Below are positions 9,638 to 60,340 of a DNA stretch of 64,000 nt, piece by piece. How positions within the stretch are numbered: position 1 is the stretch's first letter; each line of letters starts with the position of its first letter. Origin of the DNA: a bacterium (GTDB taxonomy: Bacteria; Bacillota; Clostridia; Oscillospirales; Oscillospiraceae). A program made the translations under genes and the position numbers. Under the pieces are notes generated by a model. It made no database searches. It was not told where the DNA came from and saw nothing but the letters and a program-made list of their open reading frames with translations. The stretch spans positions 419 to 64,418 of the forward strand of contig CAVEQS010000009.1 in assembly GCA_963618015.1 (NCBI GenBank), read 5' to 3'.

Positions 9638-9877
9638 AGGCCCCCTTGTGCAAAGGGGGCTGTCAGCCGCCAGGTTGACTGGGGGATTGTTTCTCCTGCG
9701 GGGAACCCCTCCGTCACGGCTACGCCGTGCCACCTCCGCCCCCCTCTCTGTCGCCTGCGGCGACATCTCTCCCCGCCGGGGAGAGTCTGCCCCTATTAGG
9801 GGAGGCAAGAGAGTTTTCTGAAAAGCCACTTGGCTCCCCTAATAGGGGAGCTGTCAGCAAAGCTGACTGAGGGGTTT
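9638..9877. repeat. Repeat cluster R2: <A2 ; B1> (carrying a ~52-nt nested hairpin insertion) spacer <A1
   Basis: Solo type-2 module (CCCCCTTGTGCAAAGGGGG...GACTGGGGGATTG), then AACCCCTCCGTCACGGC-tacg-CCGTGCCACCTCC[insert 9738..9789]CCCCTATTAGGGGAGGCAAG, a spacer, and an inverted A1 ending GACTGAGGGGTTT. That terminus overlaps the MATE stop codon. Confidence 0.85.
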
Positions 9878-11234
9878 ATGCCGCAGCCTTTGCTTCGAGC
9901 GTCGCCTTGAACGGCTTCTTCCGCACGATGAAGTAGCATACGATGTGCGCCGCCGTCGTCATGATCCAGGAGATCGGGTAGGATACATAGAGGCTCTCGA
10001 GCGTTCCGACGGTCGCGAACACCGTATACACCCAGATGATGCGGAATACGCACGCGCCCACGAACGTCACCGCCGCGGAGAGCATGCTGTAGCCCAGTCC
10101 GCGGTTCACGCCGGACATGGCCGCCATGGTGCCGTCGAGCGCATACGTTGTGCAGACGATCATCATGCGGGTAAACGCCGCCTGCAGCTCCGCCTCGCTC
10201 GAGGTATAAAGCCCCAGCACCTGCCGCCGGAACACGATCGCGGGCACCGTCAGCACGGCGGTCAAAATCACGACGAGCGCCATCGACCACCGGGCAACGG
10301 AGCGCGAGCGCTCATACTCCTGCGCACCGACGTTCTGGCTCACAGCAGTGGTCGCCGCCTGCATTACGGCGTCCGACGGGCAGTAGAGCAGGCCCTCAAC
10401 GCTGACGCACGCGCTGTTGCCGGCGATGACCGCCGCGCCGAACGAGTTGACCGAGGCCTGGATGATAAAGTTCGAAATGGAAAAGAGCGAGCCCTGGATA
10501 CCGGCGGGGATGCCGATCTTCATCATTTTCTTGAACACGTGGCCGGAGAACTTCAGTTCTTTCACCTTCATCTCCTGCGAAGTAAGCAGGCAGCGCACCG
10601 TGAGGAAGCCGGACACGCACTGGCTGAGTACGGTAGCAATGGCGACGCCCGCCACGTCGATGCCGACGACGAGCACAAAGAAGAGGTTCATCATCACGTT
10701 CAGCACACCGGCGATGGCGAGATAGATGAGCGGCTGGCGCGTGTTGCCGAGCGCGCGCAGCGCCGCGGCGGAGAAGTTATAAAGCGCCATGACCGGCAGA
10801 CCGAGGAAGTAGATCCGCAGATACACCGTGGCGAGCGGCAGCACCTCGTCCGGGCTGCCGATGAGCCGCAGCAGCGGCACCGTGAGCGCAAAGCCGAGCG
10901 CGCCGGTGATCACACCGCCGATCACGCCGACGATGATCGTTGTTCCCACGGTGCGGTGCAGCTTGTCGGTCTGGTTCGCGCCGTAATACCGCGCGCAGAG
11001 CACGCCGCCGCCCGTGGCAAGTCCCAGAAGGACGTTGATGATCAGGTTGATCATCGCGCCGTTTGCGCCGACCGCCGCCATGGAGTGCGGCCGCCCAAAC
11101 CGCCCGACGACAATGAGGTCGGCGGCGTTGAACGCGATCTGCAGCATGGATGAAAGCATCAGCGGCAGGATAAACTGCAAAAGCTCCGGCAGCAGCGGGC
11201 CTTTTGTCATATTGATCTCAAATCTTTTTTTCAT
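9876..11234 (-). CDS. MATE-family efflux transporter
   Basis: About 452 aa and 12 TM with typical MATE repeat organisation. Start moved to MKKRFEINMTKGPLLP. Confidence 0.9.
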   Translation of the reverse strand: MKKRFEINMTKGPLLPELLQFILPLMLSSMLQIAFNAADLIVVGRFGRPHSMAAVGANGAMINLIINVLLGLATGGGVLCARYYGANQTDKLHRTVGTTIIVGVIGGVITGALGFALTVPLLRLIGSPDEVLPLATVYLRIYFLGLPVMALYNFSAAALRALGNTRQPLIYLAIAGVLNVMMNLFFVLVVGIDVAGVAIATVLSQCVSGFLTVRCLLTSQEMKVKELKFSGHVFKKMMKIGIPAGIQGSLFSISNFIIQASVNSFGAAVIAGNSACVSVEGLLYCPSDAVMQAATTAVSQNVGAQEYERSRSVARWSMALVVILTAVLTVPAIVFRRQVLGLYTSSEAELQAAFTRMMIVCTTYALDGTMAAMSGVNRGLGYSMLSAAVTFVGACVFRIIWVYTVFATVGTLESLYVSYPISWIMTTAAHIVCYFIVRKKPFKATLEAKAAA

Positions 11235-11437
11235 CTGCTCACCTCGACACATACAACCTTATAAAAGACGTATATAACAGAAAGAACACGAAAAAAATCC
11301 GAAAATTTTCTCCGTGTCCGCCTATACTATTCTTAGTTTGTGAAAATTTCAAGTACCTTCGGAAAATTATCCGTTCTGGATAGAAAGCGGCGGGTTTTCC
11401 CCGCCGCTTTCTATCCATTTTGCTATTGTGCGCGCAA

Positions 11438-12118
11438 TCAGTCCGACTTTGTCGGAAGATACGGGATGAGCGCGCTCGCAAAGGCGGGCAGCGCCATTGT
11501 CTGCAATACGACGCGCCCCGGCCCGGTGACAACGGTGTTGAAAAGGCCCTCGCCGCCGAAGAGGACATTCTTCGCGCCGCGGACGGTCTGAATGTCGATC
11601 TGGCACGTGGCGTCCACCATGGCGAGATTGCCGGTGTCCACAATGATCTGCTGTCCCGGCGCGAGCGTATATTCGACCGCCGAGCCGTCGATCTCCAAAA
11701 ACGCCATGCCGTGGCCGGAGAGCTTCTGCATGATGAACCCTTCGCCGCCGAAGAGGCCGGCACCAACTTTTTTCTGGAAGTGGATGGAGAGGTCAACGCC
11801 CGGCGTCGCGGCGAGGAACGCGCTCTTCTGCGCGATCACGGGCATGTTCGGCGTGATCTCCACGGCGCGGATCGCGCCCGGGAAGCTGGAGGCAAAGGCG
11901 ATCATGCCGGGGCCGCCCTCGGCGGTATAGGTGTTCTGGAAAAGGCTCTCGCCGCCGAACATGCGGCCAAGCGCCTTGCCGAGTCCGCCGGTCTTTGTCT
12001 CCATGCGCATGTTGGCGCTCATCCACACCATGGAGCCGCGCTCGGTGACCATGCTCTCGCCCGCTTCCAGATGGCAGATGACGACGGGCATCGGCTCGCC
12101 CTGAATGTTGTACTTCAT
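11438..12118 (-). CDS. TIGR00266 / AIM24 (DUF124) family protein
   Basis: 226 aa with three repeated GGE(S/G)(L/F)F motifs (FGGESLFQ, FGGEGFIM, FGGEGLFN) characteristic of the family. Confidence 0.75.
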   Translation of the reverse strand: MKYNIQGEPMPVVICHLEAGESMVTERGSMVWMSANMRMETKTGGLGKALGRMFGGESLFQNTYTAEGGPGMIAFASSFPGAIRAVEITPNMPVIAQKSAFLAATPGVDLSIHFQKKVGAGLFGGEGFIMQKLSGHGMAFLEIDGSAVEYTLAPGQQIIVDTGNLAMVDATCQIDIQTVRGAKNVLFGGEGLFNTVVTGPGRVVLQTMALPAFASALIPYLPTKSD

Positions 12119-12146
12119 GTCGTGTCCCCCTTATGTTGATATAATA

Positions 12147-12246
12147 AAGCCTCCCTCTTTGAGGGAGGTGGCTCGCCGAAGGCGAGACGGAAGGAGTCGA
12201 CTCCCTCAGTCTCGCTTCGCTCGACAGCTCCCTCTGGGAGGGAGCC
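12147..12246. repeat. Repeat cluster R3: <B3 A3> (type-3 modules, tail-to-tail)
   Basis: AAAGCCTCCCTCtttgAGGGAGGTGGCTCGCCgaagGCGAGACGGAAGGAGT-cg-ACTCCCTCAGTCTCGCttcgCTCGACAGCTCCCTCtgggAGGGAGCC. It ends 2 nt before the asnS stop. Confidence 0.85.
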
Positions 12247-12248
12247 TA

Positions 12249-13643
<1,395 letters not shown>

Positions 13644-13673
13644 ATTTCATTCCTCCCGGATCGTATGCCTTGT

Positions 13674-13715: not shown

Positions 13716-13847
13716 AAAACCCCTCAGTCAGCCTTGCGGCTGCCAGCCCCCCTGTTAGGGGGGCCAAGTGGGTTTGCGAAATGCTTTCTTGCCTCCCCTC
13801 GTTAGGGGAGGTGGATTTTGCCGAAGGCAAAAGACGGAGGGGTTTTT
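13716..13847. repeat. Repeat cluster R4: A1> spacer <B1 (type-1 composite)
   Basis: AAAACCCCTCAGTCAGCCttgcGGCTGCCAGCCCCCCTgttaGGGGGGCCAAG, spacer, CTTGCCTCCCCTcgttAGGGGAGGTGGATTTTGCCgaagGCAAAAGACGGAGGGGTTTTT. It ends 3 nt before the ABC exporter stop. Confidence 0.85.
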
Positions 13848-13850
13848 CCC

Positions 13851-15602
13851 TCACGATAGCCTCTGCGTATTCCAGAGCGCGGCATAGAGCCCGTTTTTCT
13901 CCATGAGCTCCGCATGCGTTCCGTATTCGCTCACGCCCTCTTTATCGATGACGGCGATATGATCTGCGCCGCGCACGGTGGCAAGCCGGTGCGCCACAAC
14001 GATCGTCGTCCGCCCGCGGCTGAGCTTTTCCAAAGACGCCTGAATGGCGGCCTCGGTCACGCTGTCCAGCGCGCTCGTCGCCTCGTCGAGCACGAGGATG
14101 GGCGGGTTTTTCAAGAATACGCGCGCAATGGCGATGCGCTGCTTCTGCCCGCCGGAGAGCATCGCGCCGCGCTCGCCGACGAACGTGTCGTACCCCTGCG
14201 GCATTTCCATGATCTCCTCGTGGATGGAGGCCAGGATCGCCGCCTCAGCGACCTCCTCGTCCGTCGCGTCCGGGCGGCCATAGCGGATATTCTCCCGCAC
14301 GGTGTCGGCAAAGAGGAACACATCCTGCTGGATGATGCCGATGTACCGGTGGAGAGAGGATTGCGTCACAGTGCGCACGTCCTGCCCGTCCACGAGGACT
14401 TGACCGCCGGTCACGTCGTAAAACCGCGGCAGGAGCTGGGAGAGCGTCGTCTTGCCGCTCCCGGACGGCCCCACGAGCGCGAGCGTTTCGCCGGGCGTGA
14501 TCGTGAGATTCACATGCCGCAGCACCTCTTCACCGTTCTGGTAGTGGAACGAAACGTCCCTGTACTCCACGCCGCCCTTTACGTCCGTGAGCTCTTTGGC
14601 GTCCGGCGCGTCCTTCACGTCCGGCTCGGTGCGCATGATCTCGAGAAACCGCAGGAAGCCGGAGCTTCCCTTCTGGAACTGCTCGACGAACTGCGTGAGC
14701 TTTCGGATCGGCGCCATGAACACCGAAACATACAGCGAGAACGTGATGAGATCGACCGCGTCCATTTTGCCCTGCATGATGAACACGCCGCCCGCGGCGA
14801 GCGTTACGAGCTGCATGAGCGCCATGGCGAATTCGGTCGAGGCGTTAAAGAGGCCGAACACACGGTTGAACGTTTTTTTTACCTTTTTGAACCGCCCGTT
14901 GGAGACGCGGAACTTCTCCATGGCATCCTGCTCGTTGGCGAACGCCTTGACGGTGCGGATGCCGGAAACGCCGGCCTCCACGGCGGTGTTGATCTCCGCC
15001 ATCTCGCTCCGCACGGCGAGACTGGCCTCGCGCAGCCGGATCCGCAGCCGCAGCACGACAGCGAGCAGCACCGGCAGCAGCAGAAGCAGAATGAGCGCCA
15101 GCTCCCAACGGATCGTTGCCAGAATGGCGATCGCTCCGACGATCGTGAGCGATGCCTGCACGATCGTCTCCGGCCCGTGGTGGGCAAGCTCGGTGATGTC
15201 GAAAAGGTCGGTCGTCATGCGACTCATGAGCTTGCCGGTGCGGTGCTTATCAAAAAACGAGAACGAGAGCGTCTGCACCTTTTCAAAAATGTCCTCGCGC
15301 ATGTCGGCCTCGACGCGCACGCCGAGCTCATGGCCGTATACCGATACGATATACTGCGCGAGCGCCCGCAGGAGATACGCACCGAGAAGCCCCGCCATCA
15401 GCAGGAAAAAGACCTTATAAAGGCCGTTCGGCAGCAGACGGTTGAGCGCATAGCGCGTGGCATACGGGAATACGAGCTCCGCCGCCACGGCGAGGATCGC
15501 CATCACGAGATCAAGCAGCAGCAGCTTCCAGTGCGGGGTATAGTAGGAAAAGAACACCCGCACGCTGCTCTGCGAAAAATCTTTCTTTCTCCTCACGGCC
15601 AT
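13851..15602 (-). CDS. ABC exporter, fused permease/ATP-binding protein (MsbA/MdlB-like)
   Basis: Six-TM domain plus NBD with Walker A GPSGSGKTT, signature LSGGQKQR and Walker B ILVLDEATSALD. Start moved to MAVRRKKDF at 15602, overlapping the rnhA stop (TAATG). Confidence 0.9.
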   Translation of the reverse strand: MAVRRKKDFSQSSVRVFFSYYTPHWKLLLLDLVMAILAVAAELVFPYATRYALNRLLPNGLYKVFFLLMAGLLGAYLLRALAQYIVSVYGHELGVRVEADMREDIFEKVQTLSFSFFDKHRTGKLMSRMTTDLFDITELAHHGPETIVQASLTIVGAIAILATIRWELALILLLLLPVLLAVVLRLRIRLREASLAVRSEMAEINTAVEAGVSGIRTVKAFANEQDAMEKFRVSNGRFKKVKKTFNRVFGLFNASTEFAMALMQLVTLAAGGVFIMQGKMDAVDLITFSLYVSVFMAPIRKLTQFVEQFQKGSSGFLRFLEIMRTEPDVKDAPDAKELTDVKGGVEYRDVSFHYQNGEEVLRHVNLTITPGETLALVGPSGSGKTTLSQLLPRFYDVTGGQVLVDGQDVRTVTQSSLHRYIGIIQQDVFLFADTVRENIRYGRPDATDEEVAEAAILASIHEEIMEMPQGYDTFVGERGAMLSGGQKQRIAIARVFLKNPPILVLDEATSALDSVTEAAIQASLEKLSRGRTTIVVAHRLATVRGADHIAVIDKEGVSEYGTHAELMEKNGLYAALWNTQRLS

Positions 15603-27686: not shown

Positions 27687-27696
27687 TAAACAAAAA

Positions 27697-27926
27697 GGCT
27701 CCCTCACCAGAGGGAGCCTTCTGAGCAAAGCAAAAGGATTTGTTGTAAACCCCTCAGCCAGCTTCGCTGCCAGCTCCCCTATTAGGGGAGCCAAGTGGGT
27801 TTGCAGAAAACGATCTTGCCTCCCCTAAAACCGGAGGTTTTGACGGAGGGGTTGTCGTTTTCCGAAGACTACAATCCCTCAGTCTCGCTTCGCTCGACAG
27901 CTCCCTTTACACAAGGGAGCCTTTTT
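27697..27926. repeat. Repeat cluster R6: hp2-like hairpin ; A1> spacer <B1(internally deleted) spacer A2/3>
   Basis: GGCTCCCTCaccaGAGGGAGCC at 27697..27718, then an A1 module at 27747..27795. A truncated B module lacking one hp2 arm follows at 27815..27853. It ends with ACAATCCCTCAGTCTCGCttcgCTCGACAGCTCCCTTTacacAAGGGAGCCTTTTT (27871..27926), which stops 3 nt before the PsuG-like stop codon. Confidence 0.8.
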
Positions 27927-27929
27927 GTT

Positions 27930-28574
27930 TTATACCGCCGAGATCTTTCTCTTGATATCCATCGCCACGGCGGAGGCCTTCTCGGCAATATCGCCGAGCG
28001 TGTCGCCGCAGGGGATGACCGTGCACTCGTTCACTTCCAAATCGCGCTGCACGAGATAGGCGTCTGCAAGCTCCTCCGCGGGCAGACGTAGCACCGGCAC
28101 GCCGCGCGAGGAAAAGAGCAGCGCTTTGTCCGGCGAGACCTTCCCGCAGAACACGAGCCGTGAAGAGCCGGAGAGCGCGTCCAGATCGGCGAGAGAATCG
28201 CGCAGCCCCGGCGCCATGACCGGGATGATACCCGCCATGCGCGCAATGGCCAGCGTAGCGGAGGGACCCGTGCCGGAGGTAGACCCGCCGCCGACGAGCG
28301 CGGGGATCTGCGAGCGCGTGCAGCTGCCGCCGCTGCGGCAGAGCGTTTCCATATCCTGTTTGGAAAGGCCGGCCTTGAGCCGCCCGTTCACGATGCCGAC
28401 GCAGCACGGCACGCAGTCGCGCCGGTAAAACGCCTGCTCGCACTCCTGCAGCGCCTCTAAATTGCGCGGGTACGGCAGCTGCATGAAAAATCCGGTCTCG
28501 ATGGCGATGATCGGCGTTCCCGCCTTGAGCGACGCCAGCACCGGCGGACACATATCCAGATATTTGCTTGCCAT
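27930..28574 (-). CDS. Short, divergent pseudouridine-5'-phosphate glycosidase (PsuG/IndA)-like protein
   Basis: PIIAIETGFFMQLPYPRNLEALQECEQAFYRRDCVPCCVGIVNGRLKAGLSKQDMETLC parallels the PsuG N-terminus (VALESTIIsHGmPYPqN...G.vPAtiai.dG...vGLs.eEle.L). It is only about 214 aa and the GGIGGVHRG-type motif is replaced. Start set to the ATG behind GGAGGAGG (MASKYLDM). Confidence 0.6.
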   Translation of the reverse strand: MASKYLDMCPPVLASLKAGTPIIAIETGFFMQLPYPRNLEALQECEQAFYRRDCVPCCVGIVNGRLKAGLSKQDMETLCRSGGSCTRSQIPALVGGGSTSGTGPSATLAIARMAGIIPVMAPGLRDSLADLDALSGSSRLVFCGKVSPDKALLFSSRGVPVLRLPAEELADAYLVQRDLEVNECTVIPCGDTLGDIAEKASAVAMDIKRKISAV

Positions 28575-28596
28575 AGAGATTGCCTCCTCCATATTC

Positions 28597-28724
28597 AAGC
28601 CTCCCTTGTGTAAAGGGAGGTGTCACGGCGCGCAGCGCCGTGACGGAGGGATTGTCATTTTCTTGAGACTACAATCCCCCAGTCAGCTTTGCTGACAGCC
28701 CCCTTTGCACAAGGGGGCCTTTTT
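28597..28724. repeat. Repeat cluster R7: <B2 spacer A2> (type-2 composite)
   Basis: AAGCCTCCCTTgtgtAAAGGGAGGTGTCACGGCGCgcaGCGCCGTGACGGAGGGATTGT, a 16-nt spacer, then ACAATCCCCCAGTCAGCtttGCTGACAGCCCCCTTTgcacAAGGGGGCCTTTTT. Confidence 0.85.
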
Positions 28725-29574: not shown

Positions 29575-29579
29575 TAATC

Positions 29580-29787
29580 GGCTCCCTCTTTGAGGGAGCC
29601 GTCGAGCGCAGCGAGACTGAGGGAGTAACTCCTTTCGTCTCGCCTTCGGCGAGCCACCTTCCTCAAAGAGGAAGGCAAGCCGGTTATCGTAAAACTTTCT
29701 TGGCTCCCCTCGTTAGGGAAGCTGGCGCGGCGCGCAGCGCCGTGACTGAGGGGTTTCTACCTCCCCGTATTCCGGGGAGGCTTTTTT
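29580..29787. repeat. Repeat cluster R8: <A3 B3> spacer <A1 ; terminal terminator hairpin
   Basis: GGCTCCCTCtttgAGGGAGCC...GACTGAGGGAGT | AACTCCTTTCGTCTCGCCttcGGCGAGCCACCTTCCTCaaaGAGGAAGGCAAG | spacer | CTTGGCTCCCCTcgttAGGGAAGC...GACTGAGGGGTTT, then CCTCCCCGtattCCGGGGAGGCTTTTTT. It starts 5 nt after the PDZ gene stop. Confidence 0.85.
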
Positions 29788-29825
29788 CTTGCAAACGACA
29801 CGAAAAAGGTGTATTCTCTATACTT

Positions 29826-34858: not shown

Positions 34859-35433
34859 TCCTCTTCCATTACTCCGTGGATTCCTACACGGACTCGCCCA
34901 GTCTCACGAACGACTTTGCCGGGCATTATAAATACGCCGAGCCGTTCCTGCTCGCACTCGAGCGGGGGCGGCAGGTGTTCGATGCGGTGTTTTATTCCGC
35001 AATGTACGCCTCCCGTGATCTCGTTGATCTTGGGCTGCGCAAAAACGAGAATTACCGCAAGGACGCCGTCGAGGGCATTTTTGAATATGTCCGCCGGACG
35101 GAATTCGGCGGCGTACCGGTGAGCCGCCTGCACTGCGTGTACTACTGCGCTTCCCTGGAAGAGGCGCGGAAGTATGCCTATGACGATGCGCTCGCCGACG
35201 GCGGCTTCGCAAAGGAGCAGGTAAAGCTCCTCACCGTGGAAACGGAGGAGAGCCGCGCCTACGCCTACGATCAGCAGTTTTATAACGCCGCCAAGGAAGA
35301 GATCGACAAAAACAACATCGACGCGGTGTTCGCCCTCGCGCGGAAATACTTTGCGCTCGAGCGCACCGAAAGCCCCCTTATCGAGATCCTCGCCGACGGC
35401 GACAACCGCGTGCTGAAGGTTGAGACATACTAA
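34855..35433 (+). CDS. Hypothetical cytoplasmic protein (192 aa), translationally coupled to the PPIase gene
   Basis: ATGA overlap with the upstream stop. Codon usage looks native. No motif I can assign to a family. Confidence 0.6.
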   Translation: MILFHYSVDSYTDSPSLTNDFAGHYKYAEPFLLALERGRQVFDAVFYSAMYASRDLVDLGLRKNENYRKDAVEGIFEYVRRTEFGGVPVSRLHCVYYCASLEEARKYAYDDALADGGFAKEQVKLLTVETEESRAYAYDQQFYNAAKEEIDKNNIDAVFALARKYFALERTESPLIEILADGDNRVLKVETY

Positions 35434-35436: not shown

Positions 35437-35565
35437 AAAAAGCCTCCCTTGTGTAAAGGGAGGTGGCGCGGCGCAAAGCGCCGTGACGGAGGGATTGTCT
35501 TTCTCCGGAAACTACAATCCCCCAGTCAGCTTTGCGGCTGACAGCCCCCTTTACACAAGGGGGCC
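35437..35565. repeat. Repeat cluster R9: <B2 spacer A2> (type-2 composite)
   Basis: AAAAAGCCTCCCTTgtgtAAAGGGAGGTGGCGCGGCGCaaaGCGCCGTGACGGAGGGATTGT, a 15-nt spacer, then ACAATCCCCCAGTCAGC..GCTGACAGCCCCCTTTacacAAGGGGGCC. It starts 3 nt after the stop of the hypothetical gene. Confidence 0.85.
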
Positions 35566-36079: not shown

Positions 36080-36589
36080 ATGCGGGGAAAAAAGTGCTGT
36101 GTTACCGGGCATCGCGATATCCCGTCGGATTGCATTGACTATGTAAAGACGTCTTTGGAACAGGAGATCGACTGTGCGATCAACGACGGCTTTTCCTGCT
36201 TTATCTCCGGCTTTGCGGATGGAGCCGACCTGCTGTTTGCGGAGATCGTTGCGGATCGGATCGCAAAGTATCCGGCGCTTCGGATGATCGCAGCCATTCC
36301 GTACCGGAAGCGCCTGGATAAACTGAAAAAATCGGAGCATACAAAAGCACTGCTTGATCGTTGTGCTGAAATCTATGTTGCCGCGGAAGAATATCATCCC
36401 GGTGTTTTTGCCAAGCGGAACCGCTATATGGTCGAGTGTTCGGAGCGGGTGATCGCCGTCTATGACGGCCGTGAGAAGGGCGGTACCGCCGGGACGATTC
36501 AACTGGCGCACACCATGAAAAAGGAACTGCGGCAAATAAAAACAGCTCCCTCTGACGAGGGAGCTGGCAGCGGCATTGCCGCTGACTGA
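36080..36589 (+). CDS. SLOG-superfamily protein (DUF1273 / YpsA-like)
   Basis: CCVTGHRDIP, FISGFADGADLLFAEIV, RNRYMVECSERVIAVYDGREKGGTAGT match the DUF1273/YpsA Rossmannoid pattern. The last ~15 codons (TAPSDEGAGSGIAAD) and the stop codon lie inside repeat module R10. Confidence 0.75.
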   Translation: MRGKKCCVTGHRDIPSDCIDYVKTSLEQEIDCAINDGFSCFISGFADGADLLFAEIVADRIAKYPALRMIAAIPYRKRLDKLKKSEHTKALLDRCAEIYVAAEEYHPGVFAKRNRYMVECSERVIAVYDGREKGGTAGTIQLAHTMKKELRQIKTAPSDEGAGSGIAAD

Positions 36590-36594
36590 GGGAG
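36543..36594. repeat. Repeat R10: solo inverted A module
   Basis: CAGCTCCCTCtgacGAGGGAGCTGGCAGCGGCattGCCGCTGACTGAGGGAG. It overlaps the 3' end of the SLOG gene. Confidence 0.75.
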
Positions 36595-36611
36595 AGAAAA
36601 CTGAGGCAACT

Positions 36612-40764: not shown

Positions 40765-40894
40765 AGGCTCCCTTGTGTAAAGGGAGCTGTCAGCCGCCAG
40801 GCTGACTGAGGGATTGCAGTCATCGGAAAATGACAATCCCTCCGTCACGGCGCTATGCGCCGCGCCACCTCCCTTTACACAAGGGAGGCTTTTT
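40765..40894. repeat. Repeat cluster R11: <A2 spacer B2> (type-2 composite)
   Basis: AGGCTCCCTTgtgtAAAGGGAGCTGTCAGCCgccaGGCTGACTGAGGGATTG, a 16-nt spacer, then ACAATCCCTCCGTCACGGCGC..GCGCCGCGCCACCTCCCTTTacacAAGGGAGGCTTTTT. It ends 2 nt before the nucleotidyltransferase stop. Confidence 0.85.
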
Positions 40895-40896: not shown

Positions 40897-41805
40897 TCAT
40901 TCCCAAAGCTTCTTCGGGTACACGCCTTTCGCCTTCATCTCCGCCACGGCGGACTGGACGCGCGGGAGGTCTTCGCGGTACGTTACGCCGTACCACGTCT
41001 CCTCGCACGGCAGCACCTGCACGCGCGCGAGCCCGGCGTGCATCTCCTTATCCGCGACCCACGGCAGGAAATACTCGGCCTTGAGCGGATTTTTCGGCAG
41101 GATCTCGCGCACGAAATCCTCAAACCGCTCGTCGAAGGCGCGCATCATCCGCTTCCGGAAGCCCCAGAAGTTCATGGATACGAGCGTGTCGCCGGGGAGA
41201 TCGATGTACGTTTTTCCGTCGGTCGTGTAGGCGGCGTGGTCGCCGCGCTTTTCAATGTGCGTCCGCTCGGTGATCGAGGTGAGGAAGCCGTTCTCCGTTT
41301 CGCACACGCCGCGTGCAACGTAACCGTTTTCGGTCACGGTGTTGCGCATGCGGTAGCCGACCATGGCGTTCTCGCTCTCCGCCATCGGCTCGGAGAGGAA
41401 AGCGTACAGCGCGCGGAACGCGCCCGCACCATAGAAGTCATCGGCGTTGATGACGGCGAACGGGCCGTCGATCACGTTCCGGCACGCGCGCACGGCATGC
41501 GCCGTGCCCCACGGCTTCTCGCGCCCCTCGGGAACGGTAAACCATTCCGGCACGTCGTTTGGCGACTGGAACACATACTGCACGTCCATCCGGCTTTCCA
41601 CGTGGCTGCCGACGATGGCGCGGAAATCCGCCTCGCGTTCCTTTTTGATGACGAACACGACCTTGCGAAAGCCCGCCTGGTAGGCGTCGTACAGCGAGAA
41701 GTCCATGATGATCTCGCCGTTGTCGCCCACGGGTGTGATCTGCTTGAGCCCGCCGAAGCGGCTGCCCATACCGGCGGCCATGATGATAAGCGCAGGATTT
41801 TCCAT
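40897..41805 (-). CDS. Sugar-phosphate nucleotidyltransferase (NTP_transferase family)
   Basis: Start at MENPALIIMAAGMGSRFGG (G-x-G-S-R signature) behind GGAGGA. KPWGTAHAV, INADDFYG. The track's 71 extra N-terminal codons overlap the upstream gene. Confidence 0.85.
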   Translation of the reverse strand: MENPALIIMAAGMGSRFGGLKQITPVGDNGEIIMDFSLYDAYQAGFRKVVFVIKKEREADFRAIVGSHVESRMDVQYVFQSPNDVPEWFTVPEGREKPWGTAHAVRACRNVIDGPFAVINADDFYGAGAFRALYAFLSEPMAESENAMVGYRMRNTVTENGYVARGVCETENGFLTSITERTHIEKRGDHAAYTTDGKTYIDLPGDTLVSMNFWGFRKRMMRAFDERFEDFVREILPKNPLKAEYFLPWVADKEMHAGLARVQVLPCEETWYGVTYREDLPRVQSAVAEMKAKGVYPKKLWE

Positions 41806-41893: not shown

Positions 41894-43063
41894 TCAGAGA
41901 AGCAGGGACTTCTCGGTCTCGCGGTCGAAGAGGTGGATGCTGTCCTCGTGCAGTTCGAGAGCGACCTGCTGGCCGTAAGACGGGATGGCGTCCAGCTCGA
42001 GCGTCGGCACGATGACAACGGCGTCGTGGCCGGCGGCGGTGAGGTGCAGATGCACGCTGGAGCCCATCATCTCGGACACGTCCACGCGCGCGGGGATGCC
42101 GCCGTTCTTCGCGAGCACGATGTGCTCCGGACGGATGCCGAGCGTCACGGGGCCGGACTTCACATCGTTGCGCAGAAGCGCTGCCTGCTTATCCTCGGTG
42201 AGGTTGACCTGCTCGCCGCAGACCTCCACGGTGTACTTGTCGCCGTCGCGCTTGAGCTCGGCGTCGAAGAAGTTCATCTGCGGCGTGCCGATGAACCCGG
42301 CGACGAACAGGTTGGCGGGCTTATCGAACACTTCCTGCGGCGTGCCGATCTGCTGGATGAAGCCGTCGCGCATGATGACGATGCGGTCGCCAAGCGTCAT
42401 GGCCTCGGTCTGGTCGTGGGTGACGTAGATGAACGTGGTGTCGATCTTGTCGCGCAGCTTGATGATCTCGGCGCGCATCTGGTTGCGGAGCTTGGCGTCG
42501 AGGTTGGAGAGCGGCTCGTCCATGAGGAACACCTTGGGGCTGCGCACGATGGCGCGGCCGATGGCGACGCGCTGGCGCTGGCCGCCGGAGAGCGCCTTCG
42601 GCTTGCGGTCGAGCAGGGCGGTGATGTCCAGAATTTCCGCGGCCTCGCGGACCTTCTTGTCGATCTCGGCCTTCGGGAGCTTTTTGAGCTTGAGCGAGAA
42701 CGCCATGTTCTCGTAAACGGTCATGTGGGGGTAAAGAGCGTAGTTCTGGAATACCATGGCGATGTCGCGGTCCTTGGGGGCGACGTCGTTCATACGCTTG
42801 CCGTCGATGAAAAGATCGCCCGAGGTGATCTCCTCGAGACCGGCGATCATGCGCAGCGTCGTGGACTTGCCGCAGCCGGACGGGCCGACGAGCACGATGA
42901 ATTCCCGGTCGGCGATGTCCAGCGAGAACTGCTGCACCGCAACGACACCCTCATCGGTGATCTGCAGATTGTGCTTCTTCTCGGGGGCTTCGCCCTTTTT
43001 CTTCTTCGTGCCGCCCTGATTGGGATAGATTTTTTTGATGTCTACCAGACGTACTTCTGCCAT
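41894..43063 (-). CDS. Orphan sugar ABC transporter ATP-binding protein (MalK/MsmK/MsiK type)
   Basis: Walker [35 protein letters not shown], plus a C-terminal MalK-type regulatory domain. No permease or binding protein adjacent. Start at MAEVRLVDIKK (43063). Confidence 0.9.
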   Translation of the reverse strand: MAEVRLVDIKKIYPNQGGTKKKKGEAPEKKHNLQITDEGVVAVQQFSLDIADREFIVLVGPSGCGKSTTLRMIAGLEEITSGDLFIDGKRMNDVAPKDRDIAMVFQNYALYPHMTVYENMAFSLKLKKLPKAEIDKKVREAAEILDITALLDRKPKALSGGQRQRVAIGRAIVRSPKVFLMDEPLSNLDAKLRNQMRAEIIKLRDKIDTTFIYVTHDQTEAMTLGDRIVIMRDGFIQQIGTPQEVFDKPANLFVAGFIGTPQMNFFDAELKRDGDKYTVEVCGEQVNLTEDKQAALLRNDVKSGPVTLGIRPEHIVLAKNGGIPARVDVSEMMGSSVHLHLTAAGHDAVVIVPTLELDAIPSYGQQVALELHEDSIHLFDRETEKSLLL

Positions 43064-43250
43064 GCGTACCGATCCTGATCTGAGAGCCTCCGCTTGCTCA
43101 GACCTTACCTCCGCCGAATATGTACGGAGGCTATACGGCAGGTCTCCACACTGCCGCACCGCGGATCCTGCGGGGAAAACAAACTCCTTTCATCGAACCG
43201 CGCACCGCTCGTAAGGTGGAGAGCGGAGGCGATCCGGTTATTGTATCTAA
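43064..43250 (-). promoter_or_regulatory. Long structured 5' leader of the orphan ATPase gene (candidate cis-regulatory RNA)
   Basis: In minus-strand reading, the 5' segment ACCGGATCGCCTCCGCT can pair with AGCGGAGGC...GATCGGT just before the ATG. This encloses three local hairpins (CCGC/GCGG, GGCAG/CTGCC, CCTCCG/CGGAGG). A TTGGAA...TGGTAGATT promoter-like sequence lies upstream, at about 43255..43285. Confidence 0.3.
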
Positions 43251-44486: not shown

Positions 44487-44502
44487 ACTTTTTTCTCCTT
44501 AT

Positions 44503-44537
44503 AAAAAACCCTGCGCCGCACATGTGCATGCGCAGGG
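44503..44537 (-). terminator. Intrinsic-terminator-like hairpin 17 nt upstream of the glyA start
   Basis: The minus strand reads CCCTGCGC-atgcacatgtgcg-GCGCAGGG followed by TTTTTT, then ATAAGGAGAAAAAAGT-ATG. Confidence 0.6.
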
Positions 44538-44552: not shown

Positions 44553-44678
44553 AAACCCCTCCGTCAAAAACTTCGTTTTTGCCACCTCCCCTGTTAGGGG
44601 AGGCAAGCCGGTATTCTGCAAATCTCCTTGGCTCCCCTAATAGGGGAGCTGGCTCGCCATAGGCGAGACTGAGGGGTT
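44553..44678. repeat. Repeat cluster R12: B1> spacer <A1 (type-1 composite)
   Basis: AAACCCCTCCGTCAAAAACttcGTTTTTGCCACCTCCCCTgttAGGGGAGGCAAG, spacer, CTTGGCTCCCCTaatAGGGGAGCTGGCTCGCCataGGCGAGACTGAGGGGTT. The terminus runs into the galE stop codon (TCA on +). Confidence 0.85.
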
Positions 44679-45703
44679 CATTCCCCGTCCGCCGCAAACC
44701 CGTTCGGGTTTTTGCTCTGCCAGTTCCAGCTGTCGCGGCACATATCCTCGAGCGAATACTCCGCCTTCCAGCCGAGCTCCCGCTCGGCCTTGCTCGGATC
44801 GCAGTACACCTCGGCAACGTCCCCGGCGCGGCGCGGCGCAATGACATAGGGGATGTGTTTCCCTGTTGCTGCCTCAAAGGCGTGCACCATGTCGAGCACG
44901 CTGTAGCCGTGGCCGGTGCCGAGATTGAAGATATGGACGCCGGGGTGCTCCGCCATATAGTCCATCGCCGCAACATGGCCGCGCGCGAGATCGACAACGT
45001 GCAGATAGTCGCGCACGCCCGTGCCGTCCGGCGTGGGATAGTCGTCGCCGAATACGCTGAGCTTCTCGCGCCGCCCGGCGGCGGTCTGCGAAATATACGG
45101 CATCAGGTTGTTCGGGATGCCGCGCGGGTCCTCGCCGATGAGGCCGCTCGGATGCGCGCCGACGGGGTTGAAGTACCGCAGCAGCATGACCGTCCACTCG
45201 CTGTCGGCCTTCGCCGTGTCGGTGAGGATCTGCTCGCTCATGTACTTCGTCCAGCCGTAGGGGTTCGTGCAGCCGCCGGTGCGGGCGCTCTCGTCCACGG
45301 GCATGGCGTTGTCCGGCGAATACACCGTCGCGGACGAGGAGAAGAGAATTTTCTTCACGCCGTGCGCTGCCATCGTCTGGCAGAGATGGATGGTGGTGCC
45401 GAGATTGTTGTTATAGTACCGCAGCGGCTGCTGCACCGACTCCCCCACCGCCTTGAGCCCGGCAAAGTGGAGCACGCAGTCAAACTGGTGCGTATCGAAA
45501 AGCTCATTGAGTGCCGCGCGGTTTAAAAGATCCATTTCGTGAAATTCGAGCGTCTTTCCGGTGATGCGCTCCACACGCCGCAGACACTCCGCATTGGAGT
45601 TTACGAGATTATCCACCACAACGACCGAATGCCCCGCGTTCAGAAGCTCCACGCAGGCGTGGCTGCCGATGTATCCGGCGCCGCCGGTTACGAGAACGTT
45701 CAT
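44678..45703 (-). CDS. galE: UDP-glucose 4-epimerase
   Basis: [15 protein letters not shown] Rossmann motif, PYGWTKYM (YxxxK), 341 aa. Start at 45703. Confidence 0.93.
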
Positions 45704-49722: not shown

Positions 49723-49810
49723 GGAGCAGGATCCTTTCCGGAAAACTGGTTTATTTGCCTATCATAGCACCGCGTTTTGACGAATGCGTGAATTTTTGTT
49801 GAATTTTAAC

Positions 49811-49847
49811 GAAAAAATAAGACGCAGCTTAATTTTAGCTGCGTCTT
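49811..49847 (-). terminator. Intrinsic terminator after the TRAP operon (downstream of repeat R13)
   Basis: The minus strand reads AAGACGCAGC-taaaattaa-GCTGCGTCTT followed by ATTTTTTC. Confidence 0.7.
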
Positions 49848-49859
49848 GTATGGGAAGGG

Positions 49860-49986
49860 AAAACCCCTCCGTCAAAAATTTCATTTTTGCCACCTCCCCT
49901 TTTAGGGGAGGCAAGATCGTTTACCGCGAACCCACTTGGCTCCCCTAATAGGGGAGCTGTCAGCCGTGAGGCTGACTGAGGGGTTT
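49860..49986. repeat. Repeat cluster R13: B1> spacer <A1 (type-1 composite)
   Basis: AAAACCCCTCCGTCAAAAATttcATTTTTGCCACCTCCCCTtttAGGGGAGGCAAG, spacer ATCGTTTACCGCGAACCCA, CTTGGCTCCCCTaatAGGGGAGCTGTCAGCCgtgaGGCTGACTGAGGGGTTT. The last T is the first base of the TRAP permease stop (TCA on +). Confidence 0.88.
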
Positions 49987-51911
49987 CACGCCGCTTTCAG
50001 CGTCTTTTTCTCCTTGAGGATCTGCATCGCCACGATTCCGCCGACAACGATGATACCGATGACGTCCGTCACCGTGCCGGGGTACACGAGGCACAGACCG
50101 CCCGCGGCGGAGAGGATGCGCAGATACCAGGGAATGCTCCCGCGGTAGTAGCCCTCGAGCGCCATACCGATGCCAAACATACCGATGAGAGAGGTGATTG
50201 CGATGACGATGATCTCCGTGGCGGTCGTATCCACGAGCACCATGGCGGGGTTGTAGGCGAGAATGTACGGGATGATGAACGCCGCGATGGCGAGCTTTGT
50301 TGCGTTGAGCGCGGTTTTCATGGGGTTTGCGCCGGCGATGGCGGCGCCGGCGTATGCGGCGAGCGCGACCGGCGGCGTGAGATCGGCCACGATGCCGAAG
50401 TAGAACACGAAGAAGTGCGCCGCGATGGTTGGAATACCCATCTTCACGAGAATGGGGGCGCACGTCGTCGCCATGATGCAGTAGTTGGCGGTCGTCGGAA
50501 CGCCCATGCCAAGAACGATGCAGCAGACCATGGTCAGCACAAGAGCCAGAAGCTTCGCGTTGCCAGAGAGGTTGACAATGGCATTGATGAGGTCGTTGGC
50601 CAGACCGGTCATTGTAAGGCAGCCGGCGACGATGCCCGCTATGCCGCACGCCACGCCCACGGAGATGCACCCCTGCGTGCCGGCGGCCAGCGCTTCAAAG
50701 AACTTCTTCGGCGTCATGCGCGTTTCGCTGGAGAACATGCTCACGACGATGGCGGCAATCGTGGCAAGAGCCGCGGAAAAGGCCATGGTATGCCTGTTGG
50801 AGGAAACAAGGTAAATGAGCAGAGCCAACGGCAGCAGCAGATAGATCTTCCCCAGTAGCGGTCGCAGCGACGGCAGCTCATTGCGCGGCACGCCTTTCAG
50901 CCCAGTTTTTTTCGCCTCCAGATGGACGCAGATGAAAATTCCGGTGAAGTAAAGAACCGCAGGGAGAATGGCGCGCACCACGATGTTGGAGTATGGCAGC
51001 GAGACATAGTCCACCATGAGGAACGCTGCCGCGCCCATGATGGGCGGCATGATCTGCCCGCCGGTAGAGGCCGCGGCCTCCACGGCACCGGCAAATTCGG
51101 GCTTGTAGCCCATTTTTTTCATCATGGGGATCGTGACGGAACCCGAGCCGACGGTGTTGGCGACGGAGGAGCCGGACACCATGCCCTCAAGCGCACTGGC
51201 GATGACGGCGGCCTTCGCCGGTCCGCCGGACGCCCAGCCGGTGAGGGCGTTGGCAAACTGAATGAACAGGTCAGCGATGCCGGTACGCTCAAGGAACGCA
51301 CCGAAGATGATGAATACGGCGATGTACTTCGAGCAGACGTTGACCGGCGTGGAGAGAATGCCCGTCTTCTTATAGAAGATCGAGCAGACGAGCGATTTGA
51401 ACGCCCCCGTGCCGAGTCCGCGCTTGACGCCGTAATAGTAGAATGCGTACACGATGAAAATGCCCGCCACGATCATGATGGGCACGCCGGTGCTCCGGCG
51501 GCAGAGCTCAAAGAGCGCCGCGATGCCGATCACGCCGAGCACGACTTCATACGTTTTAAGCGCCGGGAGCTGCTGCACGATGGTGTTGGCGTTGAAGCAG
51601 AAATAGAAGAACGATGCCGCGCCGAGCGCCATGATGATCCAGTCGTACCAGGGGACAAAGTTCACGCGGAACTCGTGCTTGTGGCTGGGAAAGATGAGGA
51701 AGCCCGCGATCAGCAGACCGCCGACGAACGACGTGAGCCGCACCTCGTCGAGCATCGTGCCGAACAGCGTAACATACACCTCAAAGATCGCGAACGCCGC
51801 AAGATACGCCTGCACGGCGATCTTCGGCTTGCCCTCCCAGGCGCGGGTATTCGATTCGCGGTCATATTTTCGCATGACCTCGTTGAGATTTTTTGTCGCG
51901 TCGTGAGACAT
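49986..51911 (-). CDS. TRAP transporter fused permease (TAXI-type, DctQM-like)
   Basis: About 641 aa and highly hydrophobic, with about 18 TM. Start at MSHDATKNLNEVMRKYDRESNTR behind GGGAGGT. Partnered with a TAXI binding protein upstream. Confidence 0.9.
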   Translation of the reverse strand: MSHDATKNLNEVMRKYDRESNTRAWEGKPKIAVQAYLAAFAIFEVYVTLFGTMLDEVRLTSFVGGLLIAGFLIFPSHKHEFRVNFVPWYDWIIMALGAASFFYFCFNANTIVQQLPALKTYEVVLGVIGIAALFELCRRSTGVPIMIVAGIFIVYAFYYYGVKRGLGTGAFKSLVCSIFYKKTGILSTPVNVCSKYIAVFIIFGAFLERTGIADLFIQFANALTGWASGGPAKAAVIASALEGMVSGSSVANTVGSGSVTIPMMKKMGYKPEFAGAVEAAASTGGQIMPPIMGAAAFLMVDYVSLPYSNIVVRAILPAVLYFTGIFICVHLEAKKTGLKGVPRNELPSLRPLLGKIYLLLPLALLIYLVSSNRHTMAFSAALATIAAIVVSMFSSETRMTPKKFFEALAAGTQGCISVGVACGIAGIVAGCLTMTGLANDLINAIVNLSGNAKLLALVLTMVCCIVLGMGVPTTANYCIMATTCAPILVKMGIPTIAAHFFVFYFGIVADLTPPVALAAYAGAAIAGANPMKTALNATKLAIAAFIIPYILAYNPAMVLVDTTATEIIVIAITSLIGMFGIGMALEGYYRGSIPWYLRILSAAGGLCLVYPGTVTDVIGIIVVGGIVAMQILKEKKTLKAA

Positions 51912-51964
51912 GGGACGTACCTCCCGTTTTAGAATCAATCGTTGAATACGCAACGGGAGGAGCA

Positions 51965-52200
51965 GAGCCCCTCCCCTACAGGCCGGCCAAAGAAGCCTCG
52001 CAGAGTTTGCGCCCGCAGGCGCAAAAAGACTTGATTATTTTCTCCGGCGACATGCGCGTCGGAGAAAATACCGCTCGGCTTGCAAACGTGCGAGCGAAGC
52101 GAGTGCGCTGCGGCAAGCCGCAGCCTTTTCAAACGAGAGCCCAACGCAGTGGGTCTCGTTTGAGGGCGTGTCAAAAAGAATTTTTGGCACGCCCAATGGG
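51965..52200. repeat. Cluster of at least five GC-rich hairpins in the binding-protein/permease intergenic region of the TRAP operon (R16; related to hp1-type stems of the repeat family)
   Basis: Stems GCGCC/GGCGC (52018..), TTTTCTCCGGCGAC/GTCGGAGAAAA (52039..52068), CTTGC...GCAAG enclosing GTGCGAGCgaaGCGAGTGC, AAACGAGAGCCC/GGGTCTCGTTT and GCGTGTCAAAAA/TTTTTGGCACGC. The loop/stem pieces GCGAGCGAAGCGAG resemble the A3 hp1. Confidence 0.55.
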
Positions 52201-52204
52201 AGGA

Positions 52205-55945: not shown

Positions 55946-56056
55946 AAAACTCCCTCAGTCTCGCCTTTGGCGAGCCAGCTCCCTCAAAGAGGGAGCCAAT
56001 TTGCCTCCCTCCCCGAGGGAGGTGGCCCGGTGCTTCGCGCCGGGACGGAAGGAGTT
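55946..56056. repeat. Repeat cluster R14: A3> <B3 (head-to-head, no spacer)
   Basis: AAAACTCCCTCAGTCTCGCCtttGGCGAGCCAGCTCCCTCaaaGAGGGAGCCAA | TTTGCCTCCCTCcccGAGGGAGGTGGCCCGGtgcttcgcgCCGGGACGGAAGGAGTT. It lies between the parS pair and the parA start. Confidence 0.85.
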
Positions 56057-57733: not shown

Positions 57734-57751
57734 TTTTGAGGAGAATATATC

Positions 57752-59053: not shown

Positions 59054-59080
59054 AACGTAAAATTCCAACGGGAACAACCA

Positions 59081-59908
59081 ATGGAAAACACCGTTCGTAT
59101 CCGTATTCTGCGCTGCGGAACGATGACTCCCCCGGCGGCAGCGTATCCGGGCGTGCCGAAGCGGTACGTCCGGCGCGGCCGCGTCGAGCTGCCGGTGAGC
59201 GCATTTCTCATCGAGACGCCGGGGCATAAGCCGGTGCTCGTCGATACCGGCTGGGGGCGTGCGATCAGCCCCGCGGGCGTATACGACCACGCCGCGGCGC
59301 GCGCGAAGCTCCCGCCGCGCTTGTGCGCCTACTGGCAGCCCGTCACGCCGCCGGGGTGGAGCGTGCGTGAGCAGCTTGCAAAGCTCGGCTTCTCCCCTGC
59401 CGAGCTCGAAACGGTTCTGCTCACATCGCTGGAGCCGGATCATGTTGCGGGCGTGGATGAGGTGAGCGATGCGCCTCTCATTGAGCTGCCGGAACAGGAG
59501 AAATACTGGACGCCGCGCACCGTGTACGCGCTGCGCCAGCCGCGCTCGCTCTGGGAGCACCTGCCGGTAAAGCCGTTTTATTACCGCGGCGTGCCGGACG
59601 GGCCATTCCGCCGGACGTGGGATCTCCTCGGCGACGGGAGCATCCTCTGCATCAGCACCCCGGGGTATACCGAGGGCGCGTGCGTCCTGCGCGTAAATTC
59701 CCCGAGCGGGAAATATGTGCTCGTGCAGTCCTCGATTGCCGTGTGCCGGGATGTGCTCGGCACGGAGAATGTGCCGCTTGCGGGCTTCAACCGTGAATTT
59801 CAAAAGCGCTCGCTCGCCTGGCTCTCGGATGTGAGCCGTGAGGAAAACTGCGCCGCCGTCCTCTTCGGGCATGACCCGGAGGAGATCCCGCGCGTGATCG
59901 AATTTTGA
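59081..59908 (+). CDS. MBL-fold hydrolase-like protein with degenerate metal motif
   Basis: Overall lactonase/MBL-like layout (SAFLIETPGHKPVLVDTG...). The position of HxHxDH reads SLEPDH. 275 aa. Confidence 0.6.
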   Translation: MENTVRIRILRCGTMTPPAAAYPGVPKRYVRRGRVELPVSAFLIETPGHKPVLVDTGWGRAISPAGVYDHAAARAKLPPRLCAYWQPVTPPGWSVREQLAKLGFSPAELETVLLTSLEPDHVAGVDEVSDAPLIELPEQEKYWTPRTVYALRQPRSLWEHLPVKPFYYRGVPDGPFRRTWDLLGDGSILCISTPGYTEGACVLRVNSPSGKYVLVQSSIAVCRDVLGTENVPLAGFNREFQKRSLAWLSDVSREENCAAVLFGHDPEEIPRVIEF

Positions 59909-59917
59909 GGTGACAAT

Positions 59918-60340
59918 GTGAAAGAAAAGCTGAAAGCCCTCTATGAAAAATACAAGGATCTCGTCCCCTACGTGTTCTTCGGCGTGCTGACGACGATCGT
60001 GAACTATGTCTCCTACTGGCTGTTTGCGCATCCGCTCGGCTGCAGCACGGTGGTCAGCACCGCCGTTGCGTGGCTTTTGAGCGTGCTGTTCGCCTATGTG
60101 ACGAACCGCCGCTGGGTCTTCCACAGCGAGGCGAAGGGCAGAAAGGAGATCGGGAAGGAGTTTGCCGCATTTTTCAGCGCCCGCCTGGGGACGGGGCTTC
60201 TGGATATGCTCATCATGTACCTGTGCGTCGATCTGCTCGGCTGGAACGACATGGTCATGAAGCTCGCCTCGAACGTCATCGTTGTCATTCTCAATTACAT
60301 TCTGAGCAAGTTCTTCATCTTCAAGAAAAAGGAAAAATAA
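59918..60340 (+). CDS. GtrA-family membrane protein
   Basis: 140 aa, 4 TM, with FGVLTTIVNYVSYWLF and NRRWVF motifs typical of GtrA. GTG start. The stop TAA lies in the first bases of repeat R15. Confidence 0.85.
   Translation: MKEKLKALYEKYKDLVPYVFFGVLTTIVNYVSYWLFAHPLGCSTVVSTAVAWLLSVLFAYVTNRRWVFHSEAKGRKEIGKEFAAFFSARLGTGLLDMLIMYLCVDLLGWNDMVMKLASNVIVVILNYILSKFFIFKKKEK

Follow-up and report, generated by a model that had tools for sequence, protein, structure and literature searches.

Stop-proximal hairpin repeats in a Clostridia genome: a REP-like mosaic, its place around native terminators and its association with a DUF559 gene

The stretch of DNA analysed here, referred to as the window (64,000 nucleotides, G000:C9:419-64418), carries 14 clusters of short hairpin repeats, several of which meet a stop codon. 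It is part of G000, a metagenome-assembled genome (MAG) of 2.55 Mb with 59% GC in 68 contigs that is 93.6% complete. We find that the clusters are mosaics in the manner of repetitive extragenic palindromes (REPs) and bacterial interspersed mosaic elements (BIMEs), which combine a CGTC-type REP with a mirror repeat of the BoxC/triplex motif (TM) type. They lack a gene of their own but are related to a cassette that has a gene of the DUF559 family bracketed by two inverted modules. As for their position, the elements occupy the terminator slot of genes and the stop codons are the genes' own; that this placement is mainly the outcome of tolerated insertion we hold about evenly poised.

The sequence AACCCCTC occurs 14 times in the window, where 1.05 occurrences are expected, and is arranged in plus/minus pairs about 120 nt apart. 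A genome-wide search with nhmmer located approximately 200 modules in G000, with 107 intergenic clusters for which both neighbour genes are available. Each module is about 50 nt long and consists of three parts. The C-rich terminus (T end) reads CCCTC[C/A]GTC and is preceded by a subfamily-specific extension, namely AAAC, ACAAT, AACT or TCTCT. The Y hairpin carries a CGTC or AGTC tag, a stem that varies among copies, and a (G)CCA tail. The X hairpin reads GCCA[C/G]CTCCC(T/C)-loop-(A/G)GGGAG[G/C], and its 5' arm mirrors the terminus. In terms of the known families, the Y hairpin is the CGTC-type REP, and it is sited in the enlarged second loop of the BoxC/TM-type mirror repeat. Modules are paired in inverted orientation in two ways: either the T ends point outward (T..T), as in the 124-nt elements of the AACCCCTC type, or the X hairpins do (X..X), in which case the T ends face a linker of 12-16 nt. 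Terminal inverted repeats are present on the elements.

Among 180 modules, the tag is CGTC in 85 and AGTC in 71 (156/180 together), and the tail is GCCA in 104, the ACA variant GACA in 40 and TCCA in 18. RNAalifold, applied to a MAFFT alignment, recovered the X hairpin alone because the Y hairpin varies in length, and the Y stems were hence counted directly. This count gave 39 distinct stem arms, with stems of 4-7 bp in 145/180 modules and of 10 bp in one more, loops of mostly 3 nt plus a possible closing pair, and AA, TT or AG as first stem bases in about half. Terminus and X arm are concordant at position 6 in 174/180 modules, the mirror run between the terminus and the X 5' arm has a mean of 5.28 versus 4.54 with shuffled partners, and the tag base is coupled to the X-arm class in 173/180 modules. 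Shared descent of subfamilies could also yield this pattern.

A further feature was observed next to CCGTC-type termini, which usually continue with T(3-5)CCCC(TC), i.e., a short inverted copy of the terminus (GAGGGG-TTTT-CCCCTC). Examples in T..T elements of G000 are window 13840-13853, C10:8572 and C17:18253. The flank resembles a T-linker-T junction with the partner module cut after 6-8 nt; a P-nucleotide-like origin was ruled out, as the GGGG-TTTT-CCCC sequence is not a true DNA palindrome.

No Rfam family covers the repeats, malK-I being the only threshold match in the window, and a literature search with the sequence strings returned chance matches only. The REP-associated tyrosine transposase (RAYT, Y1_Tnp, PF01797) is absent from G000 at its 93.6% completeness, and the Y1 genes found in four relatives have no flanking modules. 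A parent insertion sequence with the same ends and a transposase, as would be expected for an IS-derived MITE, was considered and discarded; no pair of termini encloses a transposase-like gene. The sole gene type enclosed by modules is DUF559. A DUF559 protein (PF04480) of about 125 aa is also the one family that recurs near 120 public loci with the module pattern, and the public genomes in which this motif occurs are for the most part MAGs of Oscillospiraceae, Faecousia and other Clostridia. Two DUF559 genes are present in G000 (PF04480, E=5.5e-29 and 1.9e-28), each located exactly between inverted ACAAT-type modules whose T ends point toward the gene. Within the upstream T end (GACGGAGGGATTGTC-ATG), GGAGGG forms a Shine-Dalgarno sequence 7 nt ahead of the ATG, and the open reading frame (ORF) ends within the downstream module. 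Judged by this layout, X..X elements look like the cassette without its gene.

The association extends beyond G000. A gene-first search of other genomes of the order found modules within 250 nt in 20/29 DUF559 loci, 11 of which have them on both sides in the same geometry. The arrangement recurs in Sphingobium indicum, Sphingomonas, Croceibacterium, a Proteobacteria MAG, Phascolarctobacterium and other Clostridia, where it is limited to some of the DUF559 paralogues. On a tree of 51 sequences the flanked genes cluster (11 label changes versus 17.3 when shuffled, P=0.001, a figure inflated by relatedness). Within the genus, strict-pattern module counts are highest in G000 (109) and range from at most 68 down to 0 in its relatives; G005 has two modules only, which flank its DUF559 gene. 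The protein has invariant D51, E62, D64 and H68. Its model (pLDDT, the predicted local distance difference test score, 89) is closest in fold to 3HRL and 3R3P (template modelling score 0.81-0.83), with Vsr ranking lower, and its sequence matches 3HRL, a Neisseria DUF559 structure, at E=1.2e-14. A conserved C/T mismatch between termini, considered as a general Vsr-type substrate, was dropped; the Sphingomonad copies have identical CCGTC on both sides.

That cluster ends gather at stop codons had been noted in a sequence-only reading of the window, and the comparison with a null model across the whole genome bears this out. Genes were called with a home-made codon-usage ORF caller (2288 genes, 89% coding). 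Convergent intergenic regions hold 39/107 clusters, though they make up 11% of intergenic regions, and divergent ones hold 8. Of the stop-facing cluster ends, 28/138 lie at most 5 nt, 43/138 at most 10 nt and 52/138 at most 15 nt from the stop; start-facing ends lie within 10 nt of the start in 4/76 cases. When each cluster is slid uniformly within its own intergenic region (20,000 simulations), 10.5 +/- 2.7 ends are expected within 5 nt of a stop, and 0/20,000 simulations reached the 28 observed. The excess persists without the window contig (20 versus 8.5) and in convergent regions alone (14 versus 6.5). A 2.7-fold excess of this kind means that the observation is real against a naive null.

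The gaps between stop and cluster are bimodal, measuring either at most 18 nt or 49-75 nt. Nearly all of the long gaps hold a strong native terminator hairpin (-22 to -40 kcal/mol), and for 28/43 of the stop-abutting ends a strong hairpin of this native type lies beyond the cluster. Within the window, the elements at galE, TRAP, GtrA and PDZ are placed between stop and conserved native terminator. The order is either stop, element and native terminator, or the element stands just beyond the terminator. In so compact a genome, an insertion would survive only if it damaged neither coding sequence nor native terminator hairpin nor the promoter or ribosome-binding site (RBS) of the next gene. The room left for insertions would then be the few nucleotides between stop and terminator plus the stretch past the terminator. 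In a minority of ORFs the reading frame runs on into a module and ends at a TGA or TAA that the module carries. We infer that the placement results chiefly from purifying selection, not from targeting. A constraint-aware null, which forbids positions in strong hairpins and in the 40 nt upstream of starts, gave 27.1 ends within 5 nt against the 28 observed, but is partly circular, with 22 rule-breaking clusters kept at their observed positions.

The window clusters were further compared with their orthologous sites in five to ten genomes of the same genus. For TRAP, the ABC exporter, asnS and GtrA, the stop position is the same with and without the element; the TRAP stop is TGA in G000 and TAA at the same place in the element-free G001. 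The MATE stop differs by one codon. The slots themselves are shared and show high turnover. At asnS, the place taken by an element in G000, G002, G004 and G010 is occupied exactly by a native terminator in G001 and G003. The ABC-exporter slot holds other subfamilies in G003 and G004, and the nucleotidyltransferase slot holds a solo X hairpin in G003 and a T..T element in G010. Often the same intergenic region is occupied in a sister species by a different subfamily at a different offset from the stop, and sometimes an unrelated repeat (GGGAGGGGCAGAGCCCCTCCCCTACAGG...) fills the module slot.

Besides the modules, two other repeats, one GC-rich and one palindromic, were observed in such slots. 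An unrelated GC-rich family, GGGAGG(G/A)GCAGAGCCCCTCCCCTACAGG ... TAGGGGCGGGGCTCTGCTCC, lies at window ~51950-52010 and was also found at the TRAP site of G004 and G001, at G004 C42:16846 and at G009 C17:11577, in the same slots as modules. A third recurrent repeat, the palindromic CAAACGAGAGCCC..GGGCTCTCGTTTGA, lies in the same type of slot at window ~52110-52150, and elsewhere at G004 C11:51595, in a G004 c5 intergenic region and after GtrA in G001. At L190 (G001:C55, the orthologue of window 27687-27929), an insert of ~750 nt splits a T..T element between the X hairpin and the last T end; it has an ORF on the opposite strand and could represent either cargo or another mobile element within the module.

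Several points weigh against tolerated insertion as the full explanation. In a strict version of the constraint-aware null, which leaves out the 22 rule-breaking clusters and tiny intergenic regions, 33 ends are observed versus 24.3 expected within 10 nt (P=0.005), and 20 versus 15.0 within 5 nt (P=0.067). The terminator and promoter constraints therefore account for most of the 2.7-fold excess, and about 1.35-fold is left. The promoter rule has exceptions, since 22/107 clusters come closer than 40 nt to a start codon. For two of the three clean young insertions the site is a GC-rich hairpin, in its 5' arm (in one case an X hairpin, in the other a native terminator), which hints at structure-directed insertion. 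DUF559 gene and module abundance do not strictly co-occur in the genus: in G002 and G004, which have 44-47 modules, no DUF559 gene was found (MAGs 72-82% complete), and G011 has the gene and no modules. Finally, the cluster ends are accurate to about +/-3 nt only, and the gene calls are home-made. The MAG is also incomplete and clean empty sites are few; the region of contig C34 has no orthologue in the five relatives and thus yields none.

Structure-directed insertion, at or beside GC-rich hairpins such as native terminators and the elements' own X hairpins, is the best of the alternatives, a tentative one which we rate clearly below tolerated insertion. Nicking of hairpin or triplex DNA by the DUF559 nuclease may allow this, and elements would be found next to stops because terminators start 5-20 nt after stops. 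Relevant here are insertions of G000 that are missing in relatives with flanks 91-99% identical, and which show recent mobility. The genome contains the nested 52-nt module in 8 near-identical copies, and every one of them sits at one and the same point of an X-hairpin 5' arm. At C21:21681 the element, absent in G004 (flanks 97-99% identical), has its site within the 5' arm of a bidirectional native terminator, and a duplication of ~15 nt leaves one terminator intact. The GtrA element is missing in all five relatives; the G010 site consists of the TAA, a 12-nt spacer and the terminator, which places the insertion 12 nt before the terminator stem, and no target duplication is visible relative to this empty site. 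At C42:9078, the empty intergenic region of G010 is 13 nt long (stop, RBS, start). The asnS element at the terminator position of the relatives, the repeated colonisation of the same intergenic regions and the residual 1.35-fold excess are in agreement with directed insertion as well. However, clean young insertions number only three, no common target sequence is apparent, and the duplications are inconsistent (none at GtrA, ~15 nt at C21:21681, 0-2 nt for the nested module). Moreover, the nuclease activity of DUF559 is only predicted, and the unrelated repeat family in the same slots fits filtering better than a shared targeting mechanism.

The GtrA element also lies at a break of synteny (window 60338-60641). 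All five relatives differ downstream of GtrA, and the G000 genes downstream of it are found on other contigs or at other positions in the relatives.

It appears unlikely to us that the elements have been selected for a function in the 3' untranslated region (UTR), be it mRNA 3'-end protection, a role as terminator or insulator, or ribosome stalling that lowers upstream translation. Selection for protection, termination or insulation had been one of the two readings offered in the sequence-only reading. Its positional part stands, since the elements do sit in 3' UTRs, in the gap between stop and terminator or just past the terminator; the terminator and promoter constraints explain most of the stop-proximal excess. 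In favour of a function are the 52 stop-facing ends within 15 nt, a distance at which REPs of Escherichia coli stall ribosomes and lower translation according to work cited in the RepRanger paper (PMC12306157), and the general argument that many REPs act as RNA elements (Di Nocera, De Gregorio, Rocco 2013, PMC3733652). In addition, TTTT follows 32/98 outward X hairpins versus 12/120 termini, the asnS element replaces the native terminator, and at the same sites G003 and G004 retain solo X hairpins with T-runs. Against it stand the turnover among sister species, with families interchangeable at one site, the fact that either element end may face the stop, and the separate native terminator found behind most stop-abutting T..T elements. 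Furthermore, PIT elements are given in PMC4666352 as having no promoter or terminator activity in E. coli.

Least of all do we credit the suggestion, one of two in the earlier reading, that the element prefers T(A/G)A; that it targets or duplicates this triplet, with stops serving as insertion sites or being supplied by the element, is highly improbable, and the data contradict it to the point of rejection. What speaks for it are five junctions in the window at which T(A/G)A leads into the A-run and CCCCTC, and galE, which is two codons longer than in G001, where the site is an empty 46-nt intergenic region, and has its stop at the junction. Only 6/62 outward AACCCCTC-type termini abut a stop, however, and 5 of those 6 are in this window; direct abutment of terminus and stop is rare elsewhere. 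At the non-abutting outward termini, T(A/G)A overlaps the A-run in 15/56 cases (27%) versus ~33% expected from composition with the terminal A-run taken into account, and G precedes the A-run in 62%, the consensus being GG-A(2-4)-CCCCTC. With the junction triplet at composition level, the motif is explained as the stop of the gene itself next to an element with A at its start. The overlap of the stops is only apparent: TAA and TGA have A as their last letter, and the element opens with an A-run. The empty sites retain the same stop, and the clean young insertions lie in hairpin arms or in the spacer between stop and terminator, not beside T(A/G)A.

A wider proposal goes beyond placement, and we offer it with considerable reserve. 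It holds that the modules are one system which unites two orphan classes of repeats, CGTC REPs and BoxC/PIT/triplex motifs, and which is moved or copied by the bracketed DUF559 nuclease through nicking of hairpin or triplex DNA. That the nuclease mobilises the modules is suggested by their association. If the proposal is true, GC-rich hairpins such as terminators, or the DNA beside them, would be where copies enter, and the system would be a nuclease-driven mobile element without a transposase that is still active in the lineage.

The clusters of the window are listed in Table 1. Pfam upheld the gene names MatE, asnS, ABC exporter, Indigoidine_A/PsuG-like, PDZ, YpsA-SLOG, NTP_transferase, galE-type epimerase and DctM TRAP. 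The five overlaps or abutments named in the sequence-only reading (MATE, SLOG, galE, TRAP and GtrA) are real, as can be read directly from the letters. Of the six short gaps that it gave, those of asnS, the ABC exporter and PDZ measure 3-6 nt under strict boundaries. The other three widen to 7-9 nt, and to arrive at the 2-3 nt given for the PsuG-like gene, the hypothetical and the nucleotidyltransferase one has to include the flanking A/T run in the repeat.

Table 1. Repeat clusters of the window and their relation to neighbouring genes (positions and strand refer to the window).
Feature	Position	Strand	Context
Two-module element T..T, AACCCCTC type	3371..3496		15 nt past stop at 3355
Four-module cluster	9639..9878		Right terminus (9869-9876) overlaps MATE stop 9876-9878 by 1 nt, one A in common; shared native terminator to left
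Nested 52-nt mini-module	9738..9789	+	Within 5' arm of X hairpin; absent at site in G010
Two-module element X..X	12150..12245		3 nt from asnS stop 12249-12251
T..T element	13716..13847		3-6 nt from ABC-exporter stop 13851-13853
Three-module cluster, convergent intergenic	27746..27921		X end + T-run 8-9 nt from PsuG-like stop 27930-27932; solo X hairpin nearby at ~27698-27719
X..X element, divergent intergenic	28599..28719		5' end of PsuG-like gene; absent in G001, G002, G004
Three-module cluster	29579..29756		PDZ stop 29572-29574 (gap 4-5 nt) on one side, conserved native terminator ~29762-29790 on other
X..X element	35442..35565		8 nt past stop of hypothetical, 35431-35433; then native terminator of convergent gene
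Single module	36543..36597	-	Encodes last ~15 residues of YpsA/SLOG gene and its TGA; ORF runs ~46 nt into module, stop is TGA 36587-36589 of GACTGAGGG
X..X element	40766..40889		7 nt from nucleotidyltransferase stop 40897-40899
T..T element	44553..44679		Abuts galE stop 44678-44680, one A in common with terminus 44671-44678; native terminator ~44497-44530
T..T element	49859..49986		Abuts TRAP DctM stop 49986-49988, which comes directly after AAACCCCTC; native terminator ~49805-49845
Two-module cluster	55947..56050		Upstream of gene starting near 56022
T..T element	60338..60463		Immediately after GtrA TAA 60338-60340, followed at once by CCCCCTCC; native terminator downstream

The SLOG gene is not the only one that ends in a repeat. 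Seven G000 genes of at least 100 aa stop inside modules, the other six being located at C6:64127, C3:33920, C12:9374, C12:55606, C15:39558 and C11:34568. The module-borne stop is either the TGA within GACTGAGGG or a TAA/TGA in the loop of the X hairpin (GTGTAAAG), and the C-terminal residues of these seven genes are therefore encoded by the repeat.

At the opposite end of a gene, the PsuG-like (Indigoidine_A) ORF at 27930-28598 (-) is abutted at its start by an X..X element in G000 and G003, which replaces the first codons and RBS of G001, G002 and G004; the hairpin places GGGAGG 7 nt before the ATG. The ORF has 222 aa, covers profile positions 3-114 of 291 and may be truncated. Two observations concern other parts of the window. 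The 515 nt at 61890-62404 are uncalled, yet GC-rich with a long ORF, and are probably a gene missed by the caller. The malK-I RNA motif (Rfam RF03069, 120 bits, full length) is found at 43058-43238 (-), within the 241-nt region upstream of the gene 41894-43063.

Placement of REPs close to stops has reportedly been published already (Liang 2015). It is a known property of REPs, met here in a new host. CGTC-tagged REPs are described as units in which a stem-loop follows the CGTC tag and precedes a CCA tail (PMC3733652). In this superfamily the tag may also be TGTC or CCTC, the stem has 8-9 bp starting with A-T pairs, and the loop has 4-5 nt; the REPs are mostly inverted dimers, stem mostly from Alphaproteobacteria, include Neisseria dRS3 and Rickettsia RPE-4/6, and are apparently without a dedicated transposase. 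The same source places REPs between convergent genes less than 20 bp from both ORF 3' ends and those between tandem genes close to the 3' end of the upstream ORF, and states that in GTAG REPs the stop codon is frequently supplied by the termini. Our modules share the unpaired CGTC tag, the variable hairpin and the CCA-type tail, the preference for inverted dimers, the position less than 20 bp from ORF 3' ends in convergent and tandem gaps, and the lack of a RAYT. They differ in that the REP hairpin is embedded between the CCCTC terminus and the CCTCCC/GGGAGG hairpin, that half of the units carry AGTC, and that the host is an Oscillospiraceae-like Clostridia MAG, both the tag variant and the group being unlisted in PMC3733652. 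A DUF559 gene is bracketed here, whereas CGTC REPs are stated there to be without a dedicated enzyme.

With BoxC/PIT/TM_ECO the modules have in common three G/C-rich blocks with two mirror repeats, inverted type A/B pairs, an intergenic location and loci that are rearranged among close relatives. This motif is said to be treated also in Bergler 1992 and in Hoyne and Maher 2000. In contrast to its 3 nt, the second loop of our modules has 20-30 nt and a hairpin of its own; the TMs of E. coli have no preferred distance to ORFs and are more often upstream, while the elements described here are 3'-biased. The likeness is one of sequence. The shared traits, i.e., three G/C-rich blocks, inverted pairs of type A and type B, intergenic position and rearranged loci, are those given by Holder et al. 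2015 (PMC4666352).

Two systems with an enzyme offer themselves for comparison. Systems of REPs, BIMEs and REP doublets forming hairpins (REPINs) with a RAYT, known as REPtrons, likewise have a small enzyme gene between inverted palindromic units, along with gene-less doublets that are scattered in 3' intergenic DNA, lie close to stops and supply some of them. The enzyme here is a PD-(D/E)XK nuclease of the Vsr/EDxHD fold and not a Y1 HUH transposase, which fits the absence of Y1_Tnp from G000 and of module-flanked Y1 genes from its relatives. The EDxHD homing endonuclease I-Bth0305I (PDB 3R3P) and Vsr share the fold and the four invariant residues with the DUF559 protein. Unlike a homing endonuclease gene, the DUF559 gene is not within an intron or intein, and it is bracketed by hairpin repeats that also occur without it.

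The value of G000, a gut Clostridia genome, lies in the richest module set of the genus, in copies that differ among close relatives and in two intact bracketed DUF559 genes. Taken together, these allow two long-standing questions to be put to the test: by what means CGTC REPs and BoxC/triplex repeats are moved, and whether their 3'-UTR position results from targeting, filtering or function. For annotation, it follows that some C-termini and stop codons, as in the SLOG gene and six other genes, are encoded by repeats.

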